Positions 1,156 to 18,487 of a stretch of DNA of 64,000 bases are shown piece after piece (the stretch's first letter is position 1; each line of letters starts with the position of its first letter). The translations under genes and the position numbers were made by a program. This DNA is from Paracoccaceae bacterium (lineage in GTDB: Bacteria > Pseudomonadota > Alphaproteobacteria > Rhodobacterales > Rhodobacteraceae): NCBI GenBank assembly GCA_020629115.1, contig JAHDDY010000008.1, positions 3,916 to 67,915 on the forward strand, written 5' to 3'. The notes under the pieces were generated by a model. The model ran no database searches, was not told where the DNA came from, and saw nothing but the letters and a program-made list of their open reading frames with translations.

Positions 1156-2522
1156 CGGCCCTCGCCGACAGCGTCGCGCGCCTTGGCCCGCTCGCAGCCC
1201 TCGACCGATTCGGCCAAGCGGCCCGGACCATGCCACTGCGTCCCGTCATGGGGCGCGTGTCCAAGGTCTCGGGCACCATCGTCGAGGCGGTGCTCTCCGG
1301 GGGACGACTGGGCGAGATCTGCGCGCTGGATGAGCCGGGGGAGGGCGCGGGGCCGCCCCGCCTGGCCGAGGTCGTGGGCTTTCGCGACGGGGTGGCGCTG
1401 CTCGGGGTCATCGGCGACATGACGGGCCTGTCCTCGCGCACGCGGGTCACGCCGACTGGCGTGCCGCTGTCGGCCCCGGTGGGCGAGGGGCTGCTGGGCC
1501 GCGTGCTCGACGGTCTCGGCAATCCGCTCGACACCCGCACGCGCGGCCCCCTCGCCGCCGCCGACCGCCGCCCCGCCGAGGCCGCGCCGACCGATGCCCT
1601 CGCCCGGATGCCCGTCACCCAGGCGATGCCGCTCGGCATCCCGGCCCTCGACGCGCTCAACGTTATCGGCGAGGGCCAGCGCGTGGGCCTCTTCGGCGAG
1701 CCGGGGACGGGCAAGTCGACCTTCGTCTCCGCCCTCGCCAAGGCAGCCTCGGCGGATGTCGCGGTCATCGCCATGGTGGGCGAGCGCGGGCGCGAGGTGA
1801 CGGAGTTCATCGAGGATACGCTCGGGGCCGAGGGCCTGGCTAAATCCGTCATCGTCGCGGCGACCTCCGACCGCCCGGCCATGGAGCGCATCAAGGCCCC
1901 CTTTATCGCCGCCGCCATCGCCGAATCGTTCCGGGACCAGGGCAAGCGCGTCCTCTTCCTGATGGACAGCCTGACCCGCCTCGCCCGCGCCCAGCGCGAG
2001 ATCGGCCTCGCCGCCGGCGAGCCGCCCGCCCGCCGCGCCTTTCCCCCGTCCGTCTTCGCGATGATGCCCAAGCTCATCGAGCGGGCCGGGGTCGCGCCGG
2101 GGGGCGGGTCGATCACGGGGTTCTACACGGTGCTCGTCGAGGATGACGGCGTGGGCGATCCCATCGCCGAGGAGGCCAAGTCCCTGCTCGACGGTCACGT
2201 CGTGCTCTCGCGCAAGCTCGCCGAGGCGGGCAAGTTCCCGGCGGTCGACGTGCTGGCGAGCCGCAGCCGGGTCATGGCGCGGGTCGTTGACGCCGATCAT
2301 TCCCGCGCCGCCGAGCGCGTGCGCGGGCTTCTCGCCCGCTATGACGAGATCGAGCTGCTGCTGCGCATGGGAGAATACGCGCGCGGGTCGGACCCCCTCG
2401 CCGACGAGGCCATCGACAAGAAGGAGCGGCTCGACGCCTTCATCCACCACGCGCTCGACAAGCCCGAAAGCTGGCAGACGATCACGGACGCGCTGTCCTT
2501 TCTGGCCACGCCCGACCGATGA
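1152..2522 (+). CDS. sctN: T3SS ATPase SctN (FliI/YscN family)
   Basis: 456 aa. Walker A GEPGTGKST. Hallmark VLFLMDSLTRLARAQREIGLAAGEPP segment, plus ITGFYTVLVEDDGVGDPIAEE and GHVVLSRKLAEAGKFPAVDVLAS. Confidence 0.95.
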   Translation: MTALADSVARLGPLAALDRFGQAARTMPLRPVMGRVSKVSGTIVEAVLSGGRLGEICALDEPGEGAGPPRLAEVVGFRDGVALLGVIGDMTGLSSRTRVTPTGVPLSAPVGEGLLGRVLDGLGNPLDTRTRGPLAAADRRPAEAAPTDALARMPVTQAMPLGIPALDALNVIGEGQRVGLFGEPGTGKSTFVSALAKAASADVAVIAMVGERGREVTEFIEDTLGAEGLAKSVIVAATSDRPAMERIKAPFIAAAIAESFRDQGKRVLFLMDSLTRLARAQREIGLAAGEPPARRAFPPSVFAMMPKLIERAGVAPGGGSITGFYTVLVEDDGVGDPIAEEAKSLLDGHVVLSRKLAEAGKFPAVDVLASRSRVMARVVDADHSRAAERVRGLLARYDEIELLLRMGEYARGSDPLADEAIDKKERLDAFIHHALDKPESWQTITDALSFLATPDR

Positions 2523-3013
2523 CCCCCGCCCAGCTCGCCGAGGCCCTGCGCGTGCGCCGCCGCCGGGAGGAACGCGCCCTCGCCACATTGCAGCAGGCGC
2601 GGGCCGTGGAGACCCAGGCCGCGGCGGCGCTGGCCGAGGCGCGGGGCGCGCTCTCCGCGTTCGACGCGCGGCTGGAGGCGGGTCTCGACGCCTTCCGGAA
2701 GCGCGCCCGCATGGGCGTCACGCCCCAGGGCCTGACCGGCATGCGCGCCTTCCACTCGGATCAGCTCAAGGCCCGCGAGGGCTTTCAGGAACCCATCGCC
2801 ATGGCCGAAGGCGCGCTCGCGCTGGCGCAGGACCGCGTGGCCGAGGCGCGCTTTCTCTGGCAGCGGGCAACCCAGGCGGCAGGGAACTTGCAGGAGATGG
2901 GCGACGGGATGACCCGTGCCGCCGCCCGCGACCGGGAGCGGCGACAGGAACAGGATCGCGACGAGCTTGCCGCGACGCGCGCGGCCCGTCTGGCCGGGGA
3001 AGGGAGGGACTAG
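2519..3013 (+). CDS. sctO: T3SS stalk protein SctO (FliJ/YscO-like coiled coil)
   Basis: 164 aa, Ala/Arg/Glu-rich predicted coiled coil. ATGA overlap with sctN, and in the conserved position after the ATPase. Confidence 0.6.
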   Translation: MTPAQLAEALRVRRRREERALATLQQARAVETQAAAALAEARGALSAFDARLEAGLDAFRKRARMGVTPQGLTGMRAFHSDQLKAREGFQEPIAMAEGALALAQDRVAEARFLWQRATQAAGNLQEMGDGMTRAAARDRERRQEQDRDELAATRAARLAGEGRD

Positions 3014-5906: not shown

Positions 5907-6961
5907 GCGGCGATACCTCGGAGGAAAAATCCCTACCGCCCTCGGAGAAGAAGCTCCAGGAGGGCCGCAAGAAGGGGCAGATCGCCAAGAGCGCCGACAT
6001 GGTCTCGGCGATCGTGATGATCTTCCTCGTCGCCTATCTCGTCCTCGGCTGGTCCGTGATCGAGACCGCCTTCGCGCGGATGTTCGACACGGCGGGGCTG
6101 ACGGCGGCGCGCGGAGGGCCTGATTCGTGGAACATCGCCATCCGCGATACCTGGGCGGCGATGGGCACCATCATGCTGCCGCTCTACGGCGTCTCCTTCC
6201 TCGCCATCTTCCTCGGCTCGGTGATCTCCAACAAGGGCATCGTCGTCTCCTTCGATCAGGTGAAGCCCGACCTGAAGAAGATCCACCCCGTCGAGGGCTT
6301 CAAGAAGATCTTCAGCATCCGCAACTTCATCGAGTTCCTCAAGGCGCTGGTGAAGAGCATGTTGATCCTGCTCGTCCTGGCCGTGATCGGGTGGTGGGGC
6401 TTCCGGTCGATCATGCGGGCGCCGCTCTGCCGCCCGGACTGCTCCGACGACGTGCTGATGATCGTGGTCGTGCCGCTCGTCCTCGCGGCCATGGCGCTTT
6501 TCCTGATTTCCGCGCTCGTGGACATGACGCTTCAGAAATGGCTGTTCACCCGCGACATGAAGATGACCCATTCCGAGATGAAGCGGGAAATGAAGGAGAT
6601 CTACGGCGATCCCATGGTGCGCCGCGCCCGCAACGAGGCCCGGCGCGGGGATTCGGGGGGCGGCGGATCGGGCAAGGCGTCCAGCTTCCTCGATTCAACC
6701 GCACCGACGATTCTCGTCTGCTCGGGCGGGCAGATCGCGGTCGGCCTGCGCTACGTGCCCGGCGAGACGCCCGCGCCGATCGTCGTGGCGAAGGGCACCG
6801 GCGCACGGGCCGCCGCCCTGATCGCCGAGGCGGTGGGCATCGGAGCACCGGTCACGAACGACCCGGATCTCGCCCTGGCGCTGCTCCAGCAGGGTCGAAT
6901 CGAGACATTCGTGCCGGAGTCCCTTTTTAAGGAAGTGGCCCGCGTCATGAGAAAATCGTAG
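5903..6961 (+). CDS. sctU: T3SS export switch protein SctU (FlhB/YscU family) with a non-canonical autocleavage site
   Basis: 352 aa from ATG 5903, inside track ORF 5207..6961. N-terminal EKSLPPSEKKLQEGRKKGQIAKS, linker HSEMKREMKEIYGDPMVRRARNEARR, and C-terminal IAVGLRYVPGETPAPIVVAKGTG. The NPTH position reads SGGQ. Confidence 0.9.
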   Translation: MSGDTSEEKSLPPSEKKLQEGRKKGQIAKSADMVSAIVMIFLVAYLVLGWSVIETAFARMFDTAGLTAARGGPDSWNIAIRDTWAAMGTIMLPLYGVSFLAIFLGSVISNKGIVVSFDQVKPDLKKIHPVEGFKKIFSIRNFIEFLKALVKSMLILLVLAVIGWWGFRSIMRAPLCRPDCSDDVLMIVVVPLVLAAMALFLISALVDMTLQKWLFTRDMKMTHSEMKREMKEIYGDPMVRRARNEARRGDSGGGGSGKASSFLDSTAPTILVCSGGQIAVGLRYVPGETPAPIVVAKGTGARAAALIAEAVGIGAPVTNDPDLALALLQQGRIETFVPESLFKEVARVMRKS

Positions 6962-7290
6962 ATTGTATAATACCAGGATTCCTGACCGAATTCGTTTTAG
7001 TAGAATGTATCTTATTGACACTTAAGGCGACCTCACGTACGTATGAGCCATGGGAACGATACGTCGAAATGTTCGAAAGTAGCACGGTGACTGGAGAACT
7101 CTCTTCGGTTCTGAAGGCCGACTCGAATGGGGAAGCCATGCGCCGTTACCAACGGCAACTGGCGGATGCGTCGAAGCGGGTGGAGGAGCTTCCCAGAGGG
7201 GCAATCAAAGACACGTCAACCAAGGCCTTGCAGGCCGGATCGACTCTCCTCCCGGTTTTGTGGAGAGACATCAACAGGAGTTAGACTATC
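6962..7290 (+). promoter_or_regulatory. AT-rich spacer between sctU and the 64-aa gene; probable internal promoter/regulatory region
   Basis: The first 60 nt are roughly one-third GC by hand count, against a visibly much higher surrounding GC. Contains TAGAAT (7001-7006), TTGACA (7015-7020) and SD AGGAG (7276-7280). No clear -35/-10 pair at canonical spacing. Confidence 0.4.
7015..7284 (+). CDS. Questionable small ORF (89 aa from TTG; in-frame ATGs at about 7068 and 7138) inside the AT-rich spacer
   Basis: Open frame, but GC3 is only about 55% against about 90% in neighbouring genes. No motif recognised. It may be a non-coding leader. Confidence 0.2.
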   Translation: MTLKATSRTYEPWERYVEMFESSTVTGELSSVLKADSNGEAMRRYQRQLADASKRVEELPRGAIKDTSTKALQAGSTLLPVLWRDINRS

Positions 7291-7485
7291 ATGGCACAGA
7301 ACCTTTCCAGCATCGGCAACCAGACCGGCTCCACCGGCACCTCGGGCGACAACGGCTCCGACGACGCCGTCGCATCCATGGAAGCCGCTTTCGACCGCGC
7401 CATCGCCAAGGCGGCACAGGTCACCGAGAAGCGCATGGAGGGCGGCTCGGCTCTCGACGCGGCCCGGACCCGCCTCTCGAACTGA
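7291..7485 (+). CDS. Small (64 aa) T3SS-associated protein; candidate secreted needle/pilus-type subunit
   Basis: SD AGGAG lies 10 nt upstream of the ATG. Gly/Ser/Thr/Asn-rich N-terminus followed by a predicted helix (DDAVASMEAAFDRAIAKAAQVTEKRM). Followed by a strong intrinsic terminator. The coding call is fairly secure; the function is inferred. Confidence 0.6.
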   Translation: MAQNLSSIGNQTGSTGTSGDNGSDDAVASMEAAFDRAIAKAAQVTEKRMEGGSALDAARTRLSN

Positions 7486-7513
7486 TACGGTCTTTGCAGA
7501 CTGTCTGGTTGCG

Positions 7514-7557
7514 AGGACTTCGCCGGCCGCGTGCGTCTGGCGAAGTCCTTTTCGTTT
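7514..7557 (+). terminator. Rho-independent terminator after the 64-aa gene
   Basis: Perfect 11-bp stem AGGACTTCGCC (7514-7524) / GGCGAAGTCCT (7539-7549), 14-nt loop, then TTTCGTTT. Confidence 0.8.
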
Positions 7558-17031: not shown

Positions 17032-17870
17032 GCGGCGGCCCCCCTTGAGGATTGCGCGAAGGCGGTGTCGGCGAAGGCGGCGAGGTCGGCGTCGAACGCC
17101 TCGGGCCGCTCCCAGAACGGCGCGTGGCCCGCGCCCGGATAGGTGTAGGCGCTCGCCCGGGGCAGGGCGGCGCGGGTGGCCTCGAACATCGGCCTCGTGC
17201 AGACCTTCTCGGCCTCGCCCCAGAACAGGCCGACGGGCTTGTCGCTGGCGAGCAGGGTGGTGGCGTCGGGGCCGTCCCTGCGGATGCGCGCGGCCTTGCG
17301 CACCTCGGGCGGGACGAGCATGTTCAGCCCCGTCATCATGGCGAGATCCTGCTTCGAGAGCGGTGCGGCGAAGCAGGTGCGCAGGAAGCCGATCACCGAG
17401 GTCAGCGCGACCCCCTGATCGGCGGAATAGGCCCCCGTGGCCATCACTGCCGCGCTGCGCTTTCCCTCGCCCGCCGCCGTGACCGACGCGCCGACCAGCG
17501 CCGCCCCCGCGATGCCCGCGTCGCCGTGCAGGGACAGGTAGTCCATCACGATCCACCCCCCCAGCGACCAGCCGACGAGGAGCGGCCTGTCCAGCGACAG
17601 CTCGCGAATGACCGCCCGCACGTCGTCGGCCCAGGGCGCGGCGCAATCGTAGTGATGCGCCTCCAGCGGCTTGTCGGACGCCCCGTGCCCGCGCAGGTCC
17701 GGCGCGATCAGGCGAAACCGCCCGGCCAACGCCCCGCCGAACTGCTTGGACCAGCTCAGATGATGCTGCGACCAGCCATGGATCAGCAGGATCGGCGGCC
17801 CCTCCGGGTTGCCCCCCTCGCGCACATGCAGCCGCACGCCGCCATAGCCGGTGACGGTATGGGAGATCAT
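17028..17870 (-). CDS. Alpha/beta-fold hydrolase
   Basis: 280 aa. PPILLIHGW oxyanion region, nucleophile elbow GWSLGG, C-terminal GHAPF. 4-nt overlaps with both neighbours. Confidence 0.85.
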   Translation of the reverse strand: MISHTVTGYGGVRLHVREGGNPEGPPILLIHGWSQHHLSWSKQFGGALAGRFRLIAPDLRGHGASDKPLEAHHYDCAAPWADDVRAVIRELSLDRPLLVGWSLGGWIVMDYLSLHGDAGIAGAALVGASVTAAGEGKRSAAVMATGAYSADQGVALTSVIGFLRTCFAAPLSKQDLAMMTGLNMLVPPEVRKAARIRRDGPDATTLLASDKPVGLFWGEAEKVCTRPMFEATRAALPRASAYTYPGAGHAPFWERPEAFDADLAAFADTAFAQSSRGAAA

Positions 17871-18487
17871 CCCGCCCCCTCCGGCATGGCCGCGTCGTCC
17901 AGCGCGGCGGCGCGGCGATAGGCGTCGCGGTCCTGCACCCGGCCCGCATAGGCACGGAAGGCCGGACTGTCGGGTAGGGTGCCGAACTGCAAGCCCCAGC
18001 TCACCGCCGCGCCGACATATACGTCGACCGCGGTGAAGCGCGGCCCCGCGATATAGGCGTCCGTCGCCACCGCCCCTTCTAGTGCGGCGACGGCTTGGTC
18101 GTATCCGCCATACCCCGCCATCGCCGATTTCTCAGGCGGCACCTCGAAGCCGAGATTGCGGTTCGTGATGGCTTGCTCCACCGGGCCGGCGGCGAAGAAG
18201 AGCCAGCGGTAATAAGCCCCCCGCTCCTCGGCCTTGGGAGCGAGGTCCGCTTTCGGGAACGCCTCGGCCATGTAGGCGCAGATCGCCGCCGCTTCGGTCA
18301 CGACCTGCTCGCCATGGACGAGGCAGGGCACCTTGCCCATGGGGTTGACGGCGAGGTAGTCGGGGGCCTTCATCGTCGTGCCGTAGGCGAGCATCTCGAC
18401 CCGGTAAGGCTGGCCGACCTCCTCCATCATCCACCGCGCGATGCGCCCGCGGGACATGGGATTGGTGTAGAGCGTCAGGTCGCTCAC
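17867..18487 (-). CDS. Glutathione S-transferase family protein
   Basis: 206 aa from GTG 18487, which overlaps the molybdoenzyme stop (GTGA). Thioredoxin-like N-domain LTLYTNPMSRG...LAVNPMGKVPCLVH. Confidence 0.8.
   Translation of the reverse strand: MSDLTLYTNPMSRGRIARWMMEEVGQPYRVEMLAYGTTMKAPDYLAVNPMGKVPCLVHGEQVVTEAAAICAYMAEAFPKADLAPKAEERGAYYRWLFFAAGPVEQAITNRNLGFEVPPEKSAMAGYGGYDQAVAALEGAVATDAYIAGPRFTAVDVYVGAAVSWGLQFGTLPDSPAFRAYAGRVQDRDAYRRAAALDDAAMPEGAG

Follow-up and report, generated by a model that had tools for sequence, protein, structure and literature searches.

The window analysed here is a 64,000-nt stretch of contig JAHDDY010000008.1 from a Paracoccaceae bacterium (assembly GCA_020629115.1, positions 3,916–67,915), and it carries a cluster of type III secretion system (T3SS) genes in which a small gene on the plus strand (7291–7485; ATG at 7291, TGA at 7483–7485), encoding a protein of 64 aa, lies between sctU and sctD. 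This protein, a candidate axial (needle or pilus) subunit, is probably the principal structural component from which the extracellular conduit is built, and a functional counterpart of NopA and SctF. The axial-subunit reading is favored because the helix of the protein is conserved to the same extent as SctR and SctV, recurs in a protein of approximately 153 aa in Bordetella, and appears to resemble part of the 158-aa protein encoded at the SctI position of the cluster. An original prediction, made from the letters of the window, had proposed the protein as a major secreted filament subunit; its size and architecture, the layout for its expression and its extreme conservation are consistent with a structural subunit, but homology to NopA is statistically unsupported, the gene is not monocistronic, and a second small gene of the cluster competes for the same role. 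The latter gene, here called small A (61 aa, no known family; contig C131:1768–1953, approximately 9.4 kb upstream of the 64-aa gene and outside the window), ranks second as a filament subunit and is a real rival.

The open reading frame (ORF) at 7291 is present exactly as originally described, and it is a real gene under strong purifying selection. Its GC content at third codon positions (GC3) is 0.88, and its homologues form 44 clusters of 62–64 aa (all but one exactly 64 aa) with identities of 70–92%. The nearest relatives come from metagenome-assembled genomes (MAGs) of uncultured Neomegalonema (order Rhodobacterales), for which reason the genome of the window, that of a wastewater bacterium, is probably itself a Neomegalonema MAG; distant members of the family, with 43–48% identity, occur in environmental Bordetella and a further MAG. 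In the family alignment, residues 1–25 are variable and rich in Gly, Ser, Thr and Asn, and residues 26–64 form a near-invariant helix. Among 13 orthologues compared by the Nei–Gojobori method, dS (synonymous substitutions per synonymous site) is approximately 1.4 and dN/dS (the nonsynonymous to synonymous rate ratio) is approximately 0.04 for the 39 C-terminal codons, as against approximately 0.26 for the 24 N-terminal ones. The C-terminal 39 residues show 85–97% identity among the Neomegalonema relatives and approximately 50% identity to Bordetella; this matches the conservation of SctR and SctV, compared with only 23–46% for SctD and 55–75% for SctU. Nothing else in the compared region, which spans sctR through codon 400 of sctV, is as well conserved as this C-terminal part. 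Conservation extends over the polar face of the helix as well as the apolar one. The protein begins with MAQNLSSIG, is acidic (isoelectric point, pI, 4.7) and has no acidic residue among its first 12. The disordered N-terminus and single long helix originally proposed are borne out by an AlphaFold2 (AF2) model built with the family alignment, in which residues 1–20 lack regular structure and have low confidence and residues 21–63 form one helix (mean pLDDT 73). The P-x-x-P turn, said to be missing, is indeed impossible, since the protein contains no proline.

Terminal helices are typically common to proteins that assemble together into a single axial lattice, such as the rod, hook and filament proteins of the flagellum, or SctF and SctI, and likenesses to the helix of the 64-aa protein occur in two further proteins that are probably axial. 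First, in each of three Bordetella genomes a second sequence matches the family profile strongly (E 2e-17 to 8e-20), and an unclassified Proteobacteria MAG has a similar match on another contig (E 9e-18). In B. tumulicola, the match covers the C-terminal approximately 48 residues of a protein of approximately 153 aa (...EEALAKMSDAFDRAIAMSAEVTKVTTEKKASLDASKQRPQ), the gene of which comes after rhcC2 and the genes for a lipoprotein and an SLT lytic transglycosylase, and directly before a gene for a 1203-aa repeat protein that has hydrophobic segments toward its C-terminus (contig C7:74422–79477 for the part of the downstream cluster half from the transglycosylase to the 1203-aa protein). The 1203-aa protein is a putative translocator, and because the ~153-aa protein fuses a subunit-like helix to an extra domain and is encoded beside it, the ~153-aa protein would be a candidate tip or cap docking on a filament of the small subunit. 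Second, the helix appears to resemble part of the 158-aa protein encoded directly upstream of sctJ (contig C131:2347–2823, upstream of the window). The comparison of the two families by hhalign gave E 4.9e-5 and a probability of 68% over 26 columns at 42% identity (residues 15–40 of the 64-aa protein), and the segment D-D-A-V-x-x-M-x-x-x-F-D-x-A-I is common to both. In six-frame searches with the profile of the 64-aa family, the SctI-position gene is the best non-self match in two Neomegalonema genomes, one of them that of the window (E 0.046 and 0.035), and a weaker match in a third (E 0.32). The 158-aa protein has a near-invariant C-terminus, FDYAIETQLIVKTGSQ.S.SA.SLMRGQ, which aligns weakly with the C-terminus of NolB (E 0.03); NolB in turn weakly matches the SctI model (E 0.02). 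The Pfam models for SctI (PF17001) and NolB (PF17398) match neither this protein, nor any other sequence of its genome, nor the 64-aa protein. Placed at the SctI/NopB position, the 158-aa protein appears NopB-like, and it can be assigned only weakly as SctI.

The 64-aa gene is not the stand-alone gene of the original prediction; it is the second gene of a unit that runs from a promoter-like element through a conserved gene, orf72, and the 64-aa gene to a hairpin. The promoter-like element (plus strand, 7015–7043), apparent in the alignment of upstream regions and the GC profile, consists of TTGACA at 7015–7020 and a −10-like hexamer approximately 17 nt downstream; it sits within a 330-nt low-GC island that follows sctU, approximately 50 nt upstream of orf72, and all 14 Neomegalonema loci keep its TTGAC unchanged. 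The first gene, orf72 (plus strand, 7069–7284; 71 aa), has no family match, and its stop codon (TAG, 7282–7284) falls between the Shine-Dalgarno (SD) sequence and the ATG of the 64-aa gene, 6 nt before the latter. It is conserved as a protein, with 31–71% identity by tblastn in 12 related loci, no frame breaks, and variation at third positions; it is seen only in clusters of the Neomegalonema type. Its GC3 of 0.64–0.68 is unusually low for a genome of 70% GC. With a pI of 9.4, the orf72 protein is basic and hence not a typical acidic T3SS chaperone, and the octamer TTCGAAAG (7072–7079) was rejected as a tts-box-like element, as it lies inside codons 2–4 of orf72 and is not conserved in 13 related loci. 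The SD sequence, AGGAG at 7276–7280 on the plus strand, stands 10 nt before the ATG as predicted, and it is kept in relatives as AGGAG or, in more distant loci, as GAGGA. The original claim that no other gene of the cluster has both a consensus SD sequence and a terminator holds for the combination of SD sequence and hairpin, but the SD sequence itself is not the strongest: its duplex with the anti-SD sequence reaches −6.9 kcal/mol, and those of sctS, sctQ, sctV and the SctI-position gene pair better.

Downstream of the 64-aa gene, a GC-rich hairpin with a 14-bp stem (7513–7526 paired with 7537–7550) is followed by CTTTTCGTTT (plus strand, 7513–7557 in all). Its 11-nt arms AGGACTTCGCC (7513–7523) and GGCGAAGTCCT (7539–7549) are perfectly complementary, and RNAfold gives the 80-nt region a folding energy of −35.9 kcal/mol (z = −3.2). 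A simple consensus terminator scanner made no call here, because the loop exceeds 8 nt. The arms and the T-tract of the perfect 11-bp intrinsic terminator originally claimed are thus real, but the element is not a full terminator, as sctD starts at 7578 or 7593, 20–35 nt beyond the T-tract, which leaves no room for a separate promoter; the hairpin must therefore pass some transcription or act mainly as a 3′ stabilizer. We infer that it is either a leaky intrinsic terminator, with partial termination, or a stem-loop that stabilizes the 3′ end of the mRNA. Each of the 20 loci examined (the window, 13 Neomegalonema MAGs, the unclassified Proteobacteria MAG, three Bordetella species, Rhizobium johnstonii plasmid pRlX5, and pNGR234b) has a GC-rich hairpin of −18 to −36 kcal/mol that starts 0–50 nt past the stop, a recurrence far beyond chance. 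The stem sequences differ between lineages, and a T-run follows the hairpin in many loci, including those of Bordetella (GGGCCGGGAACGATTCCGGCCC TTTTCTGTTTTTT); since the structure is kept while the sequence of the stem turns over, the hairpin is functional. On pNGR234a, the region between nopA and y4yQ (17815–17927 of the stretch examined) also contains a 10-bp GC-rich hairpin, followed by UCUCUUUUGU; a 2014 review reported no discernible transcriptional motif in this intergenic region (PMC3973906).

The order sctU, small gene, sctD is fixed in Neomegalonema, the unclassified Proteobacteria MAG, B. tumulicola, B. tumbae and Bordetella genomosp. 4, and it is the same on pRlX5 of R. johnstonii and in the second T3SS of S. 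fredii NGR234 (pNGR234b). On account of this position, the family is assigned to clusters resembling Rhc subgroup II of the rhizobial (Rhc) family of secretion systems. When 1.84 billion representative proteins were searched with the family profile, only 13 matches emerged, all of them small proteins of the family except for one weak match within a 552-aa protein; the motif A-I-x-x-M-E-A-A-F-D-x-A-I...L-D-A-x-(K/R)-x-R is shared by the small-protein matches, NopA is absent from the 13, and every named member is annotated as a “hypothetical protein.” The 53-aa proteins of Rhc subgroup II (for example, WP_165447741 of Rhizobium and the 53-aa ORF of the pNGR234b system, T3SS-II) are true members (family profile E ~1e-22) with the same position and downstream hairpin; they differ in a shorter N-terminus and in the C-terminal tail, TTEKK-x-LDA-x-KQRPQN as opposed to KRMEGGSALDAARTRLSN in the Neomegalonema proteins. 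The 64-aa gene fits the description of the subgroup-II small ORFs: 53–64 aa, A-[IV]-x-x-M-x-x-A-F-[DN]-x-A-I, a position between sctU and sctD, and a hairpin after the gene. In the literature, systems of the Rhc-II and Rhc-III types are said to be without NopA, NopB and NopC, and “needle-less” systems have been considered (PMC3973906); likewise, a 2012 analysis of the T3SS-2 of Pseudomonas syringae and of pNGR234b named no pilin or needle gene (PMC3574062).

Among known proteins, NopA offers the closest parallel in position. NopA has been shown experimentally to be the main pilus subunit (PMC3973906; PMC10970691); NopA and the Hrp pilins measure 63–113 aa and are helical except at the N-terminus, and the pilins of different systems share little or no homology (PMC3973906). 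The statement that accompanied the original prediction, namely that rhizobial clusters place nopA upstream of rhcV, was essentially right: on pNGR234a the gene order is nopC-nopA-y4yQ(rhcD)-rhcV-y4yS, and the 64-aa gene, like nopA, stands immediately upstream of a y4yQ/rhcD-type gene in an Rhc-type cluster. The two proteins are also alike in size (64 aa in a range of 63–71 aa), in a non-helical Gly/Ala/Ser-rich N-terminus followed by a helical C-terminal part, in the hairpin and U-tract between the gene and rhcD, and in a weak shared sequence that comprises an AAF-x3-I motif and a TTE...R-x-Q tail. By contrast, the 64-aa protein is acidic and NopA is basic (pI 9.5), the gene upstream is unrelated to nopC, the 64-aa protein is far more conserved across its own clade, and its host is not a rhizobium. 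Smith–Waterman scores against NopA exceed those of shuffled sequences by z = 2.9–4.6, with controls (NopC against the 64-aa protein, and NopA against small A) close to 0, which is suggestive only, as a shared order of composition could inflate the NopA scores. The hhalign P value of 0.008 for the family members of the Bordetella/Rhizobium type points weakly in the same direction. Thus, the 64-aa protein is the positional and probably the functional counterpart of NopA, with membership in the NopA family not demonstrated.

The likeness to needle proteins and to Hrp pilins is of a more general kind. With SctF, the protein has in common that it is a small protein of a T3SS cluster with a conserved C-terminal helix, a variable N-terminus, and apparent local similarity to the SctI-position protein; a comparable relationship links SctF and SctI. 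It differs from SctF in that it has no match to the SctF model PF09392, no proline turn, and a single predicted helix instead of a hairpin of helices, and its gene adjoins sctD rather than sctI and sctJ. No canonical sctF that could take its place was found elsewhere, as a six-frame search of the whole genome (98.8% complete) with PF09392 gave nothing at E ≤ 10. The Hrp pilins HrpA, HrpE and HrpY are likewise small and mostly helical, and they are T3SS substrates without mutual sequence similarity; in Hrp2-type clusters, the pilin gene lies near the sctD homolog.

Several results weigh against the axial-subunit reading. No Pfam family, SctF, SctI and NolB included, matches the protein at E ≤ 0.1 (hmmscan), and neither does any NCBIfam model. 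In profile–profile comparisons by hhalign, homology to NopA is not statistically supported: the whole family reaches a probability of 0.5% (E 0.11) and the Bordetella/Rhizobium subfamily one of 4.8% (P 0.008), and the NopA profile in turn found nothing at the locus of the 64-aa gene in seven genomes or plasmid records. Searching the PDB sequences with the family profile gave only chance matches (E ≥ 0.4), and a Foldseek search of the PDB with the AF2 model gave 0 matches, a single helix being uninformative in such a search. The AF2 monomer is a single helix and not the helix-turn-helix hairpin of needle proteins, although another conformation in the polymer is possible. Hrp pilins are hypervariable and fast-evolving, whereas the 64-aa family, which has no sequence match to them, is under very strong purifying selection, with dN/dS nowhere above 1. 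Finally, the genome of the window has an rhcC1-like N-terminal secretin part with the T3SS cluster and no rhcC2, and no translocator was found in it, nor any homolog of the 1203-aa or ~153-aa proteins of Bordetella; the Neomegalonema machine may therefore not build an external filament. The MAG may be incomplete, or the secretion system may be a reduced variant.

The most serious alternative, unlikely on balance but deserving of attention, is that small A is the main filament or needle subunit and the 64-aa protein another exported axial component, such as an adaptor, a rod-like element, or a minor or distal subunit. Small A follows rhcC1 and a gene for a 152-aa tetratricopeptide repeat (TPR) protein with weak similarity to CdsG and SctY, and it precedes the SctI-position gene and sctJ; this arrangement resembles the order of the Ysc-type clusters, yscE-F-G...I-J, in which the needle gene is upstream of sctI and sctJ. 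It is present in all clusters of the subgroup, including those of R. johnstonii, Bordetella and the unclassified Proteobacteria MAG. Furthermore, small A is acidic; its conserved start, MNGLNSIGG, is similar to that of the 64-aa protein and is followed by a Gly/Ala-rich stretch that varies and a hydrophobic helix that is conserved, and AF2 predicts the same architecture for both proteins (in small A, residues 1–21 without regular structure and a helix at 22–59). On the other hand, small A is less conserved (54–81% identity overall by tblastn), has no downstream hairpin and no PF09392 match either, and its helix is found in no other protein of the cluster, whereas that of the 64-aa protein recurs in the tip-like ~153-aa protein and apparently in the SctI-position protein. 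Nor does Rhc-I, whose only major pilin is NopA, have a counterpart of small A: its profile found nothing on pNGR234a, and small A was rejected as a NopC homolog, since neither hhalign nor Smith–Waterman comparison indicated any similarity. A short Ala-rich pattern, (A/S/E)-F-(E/D/Q)-x-A-(L/I/V)-x-x-A, is seen repeatedly in T3SS substrates, toward the N-terminus or near the middle: in NopA, NopB (NolB) and NopC of NGR234, and in the small A and NopB-like proteins from R. johnstonii and Bordetella (for example, AAFQAQIAE, AQFERALAQA, EAFELALRS, AAFEAALSK and ASFDVAVQN). The pattern may mark a common signal for export or chaperone binding, or it may be a chance product of low complexity.

It is rather improbable that the 64-aa protein is non-structural, that is, a small secreted regulator similar to ExsE or a cytoplasmic helper of the SctE co-chaperone type. 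A short irregular N-terminus and a single amphipathic helix would also suit a partner-binding peptide, the gene stands beside that of the basic 71-aa orf72 protein, and the R. johnstonii member has a sub-threshold match to the N-terminal domain of the co-regulator PtrA (E 0.017, with 15 bits where 31 are required). However, no regulator, chaperone or anti-sigma factor family reaches significance for the 64-aa protein or for the R. johnstonii member, and the conservation of both helix faces at the level of the export-gate core is unusual for regulators or chaperones. In addition, the conserved layout with a hairpin implies that the protein is made in high stoichiometry, a larger protein encoded beside a putative translocator carries the same helix as a fusion, and the Ser/Thr/Gly-rich N-terminus resembles an export signal, in which it differs from the SctE co-chaperones. 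It is also tempting to speculate on a “split needle,” a heteropolymer of the single-helix 64-aa protein and small A that replaces the two-helix needle hairpin, since both are conserved in every cluster of the subgroup, each comprises approximately 20 irregular residues and a helix of approximately 40, neither forms a hairpin, and SctF is missing; this idea is a long shot. That the reading frame is a chance opening in GC-rich DNA, where spurious ORFs are plentiful, and the hairpin an unrelated element has next to no probability, being already refuted by the conservation data (the GC3, the 44 homolog clusters of near-constant length, and the dN/dS of 0.04) and by orthologs at the same position in another bacterial class.

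The remainder of the cluster also lies on the plus strand. Within the window, sctL (520–1155), sctN (1152–2522) and an sctO-like gene (2519–3013) precede sctQ, sctR, sctS, sctT and sctU, which stand in series and end at 6961. After the two small genes, orf72 and the 64-aa gene, sctD (7578–8465; start TTG at 7578 or GTG at 7593) encodes an inner-membrane ring protein of the Y4yQ type with the Pfam domains Yop-YscD_ppl_3rd, Y4YQ_C and Yop-YscD_cpl and the model TIGR02500; it is followed by a 125-codon gene (8606–8983) without a family match in Pfam and NCBIfam scans, an SctY-like TPR gene that ends at 9348, and sctV (9345–11435). The contig runs on for 3.9 kb upstream of the window, with an rhcC1-like gene for the N-terminal part of a split secretin, a TPR gene, genes of 61, 96 and 158 codons, and sctJ. 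Because of the Y4YQ_C domain and the stand-alone gene for the N-terminal part of the secretin, the cluster as a whole is assigned to the Rhc family. It stops right after sctV, and the next genes, for a histone-deacetylase-family protein (11443–12351) and glnE (12352–15135), lie on the minus strand; in view of them, a 1232-codon plus-strand ORF at 11482–15180 is a spurious overlap. The genome has only one homolog of the C-terminal domain of secretins, and it belongs to a Tad/Cpa pilus locus on another contig (C127:32000–41200), a series of CpaB, secretin, lipoprotein, CpaE-, CpaF-, TadB- and TadC-like genes for which nothing but gene order and size served as the basis of assignment; the apparent rhcC2 homolog on that contig, being a part of this Tad pilus locus, was rejected.

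If the 64-aa protein is the axial subunit, a feasible model may be as follows. Transcription would begin within the low-GC island, at its conserved promoter, with read-through from sctU as a supplement, and the hairpin would end or stabilize most transcripts after the 64-aa gene, while a fraction reads on into sctD-sctX-sctY-sctV. The dedicated promoter, the conserved SD sequence and the 3′ hairpin together would yield a high output of the 64-aa protein relative to the products of sctD to sctV. The protein would then be exported as an early substrate of the T3SS, with its Ser/Thr/Gly/Asn-rich N-terminal approximately 25 residues as the likely export signal; after assembly, the variable N-termini may form the outer surface, and the helix of approximately 40 residues, conserved on all faces, may make the subunit–subunit contacts of a helical polymer. 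Such a polymer would grow on the 158-aa NopB-like protein at the SctI position and, in clusters of the Bordetella type, would probably be capped by the ~153-aa paralog that carries the same helix.

The new element in these observations is a conserved small gene, annotated as hypothetical or not annotated at all, at the nopA position of the T3SSs resembling Rhc subgroup II; candidates for an SctI-type protein and a tip-like paralog are also new. They suggest that the T3SSs of Rhc subgroup II, such as the second system of NGR234, the T3SS-2 of P. syringae and related systems, probably do build an external conduit. In addition, the Rhc-type T3SSs, together with a near-invariant candidate subunit, are extended to Neomegalonema, a genus that includes filamentous bacteria of activated sludge. 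If the weak links to NopA and SctI hold at the structural level, the NopA-type pilins could join a general family of T3SS axial proteins.

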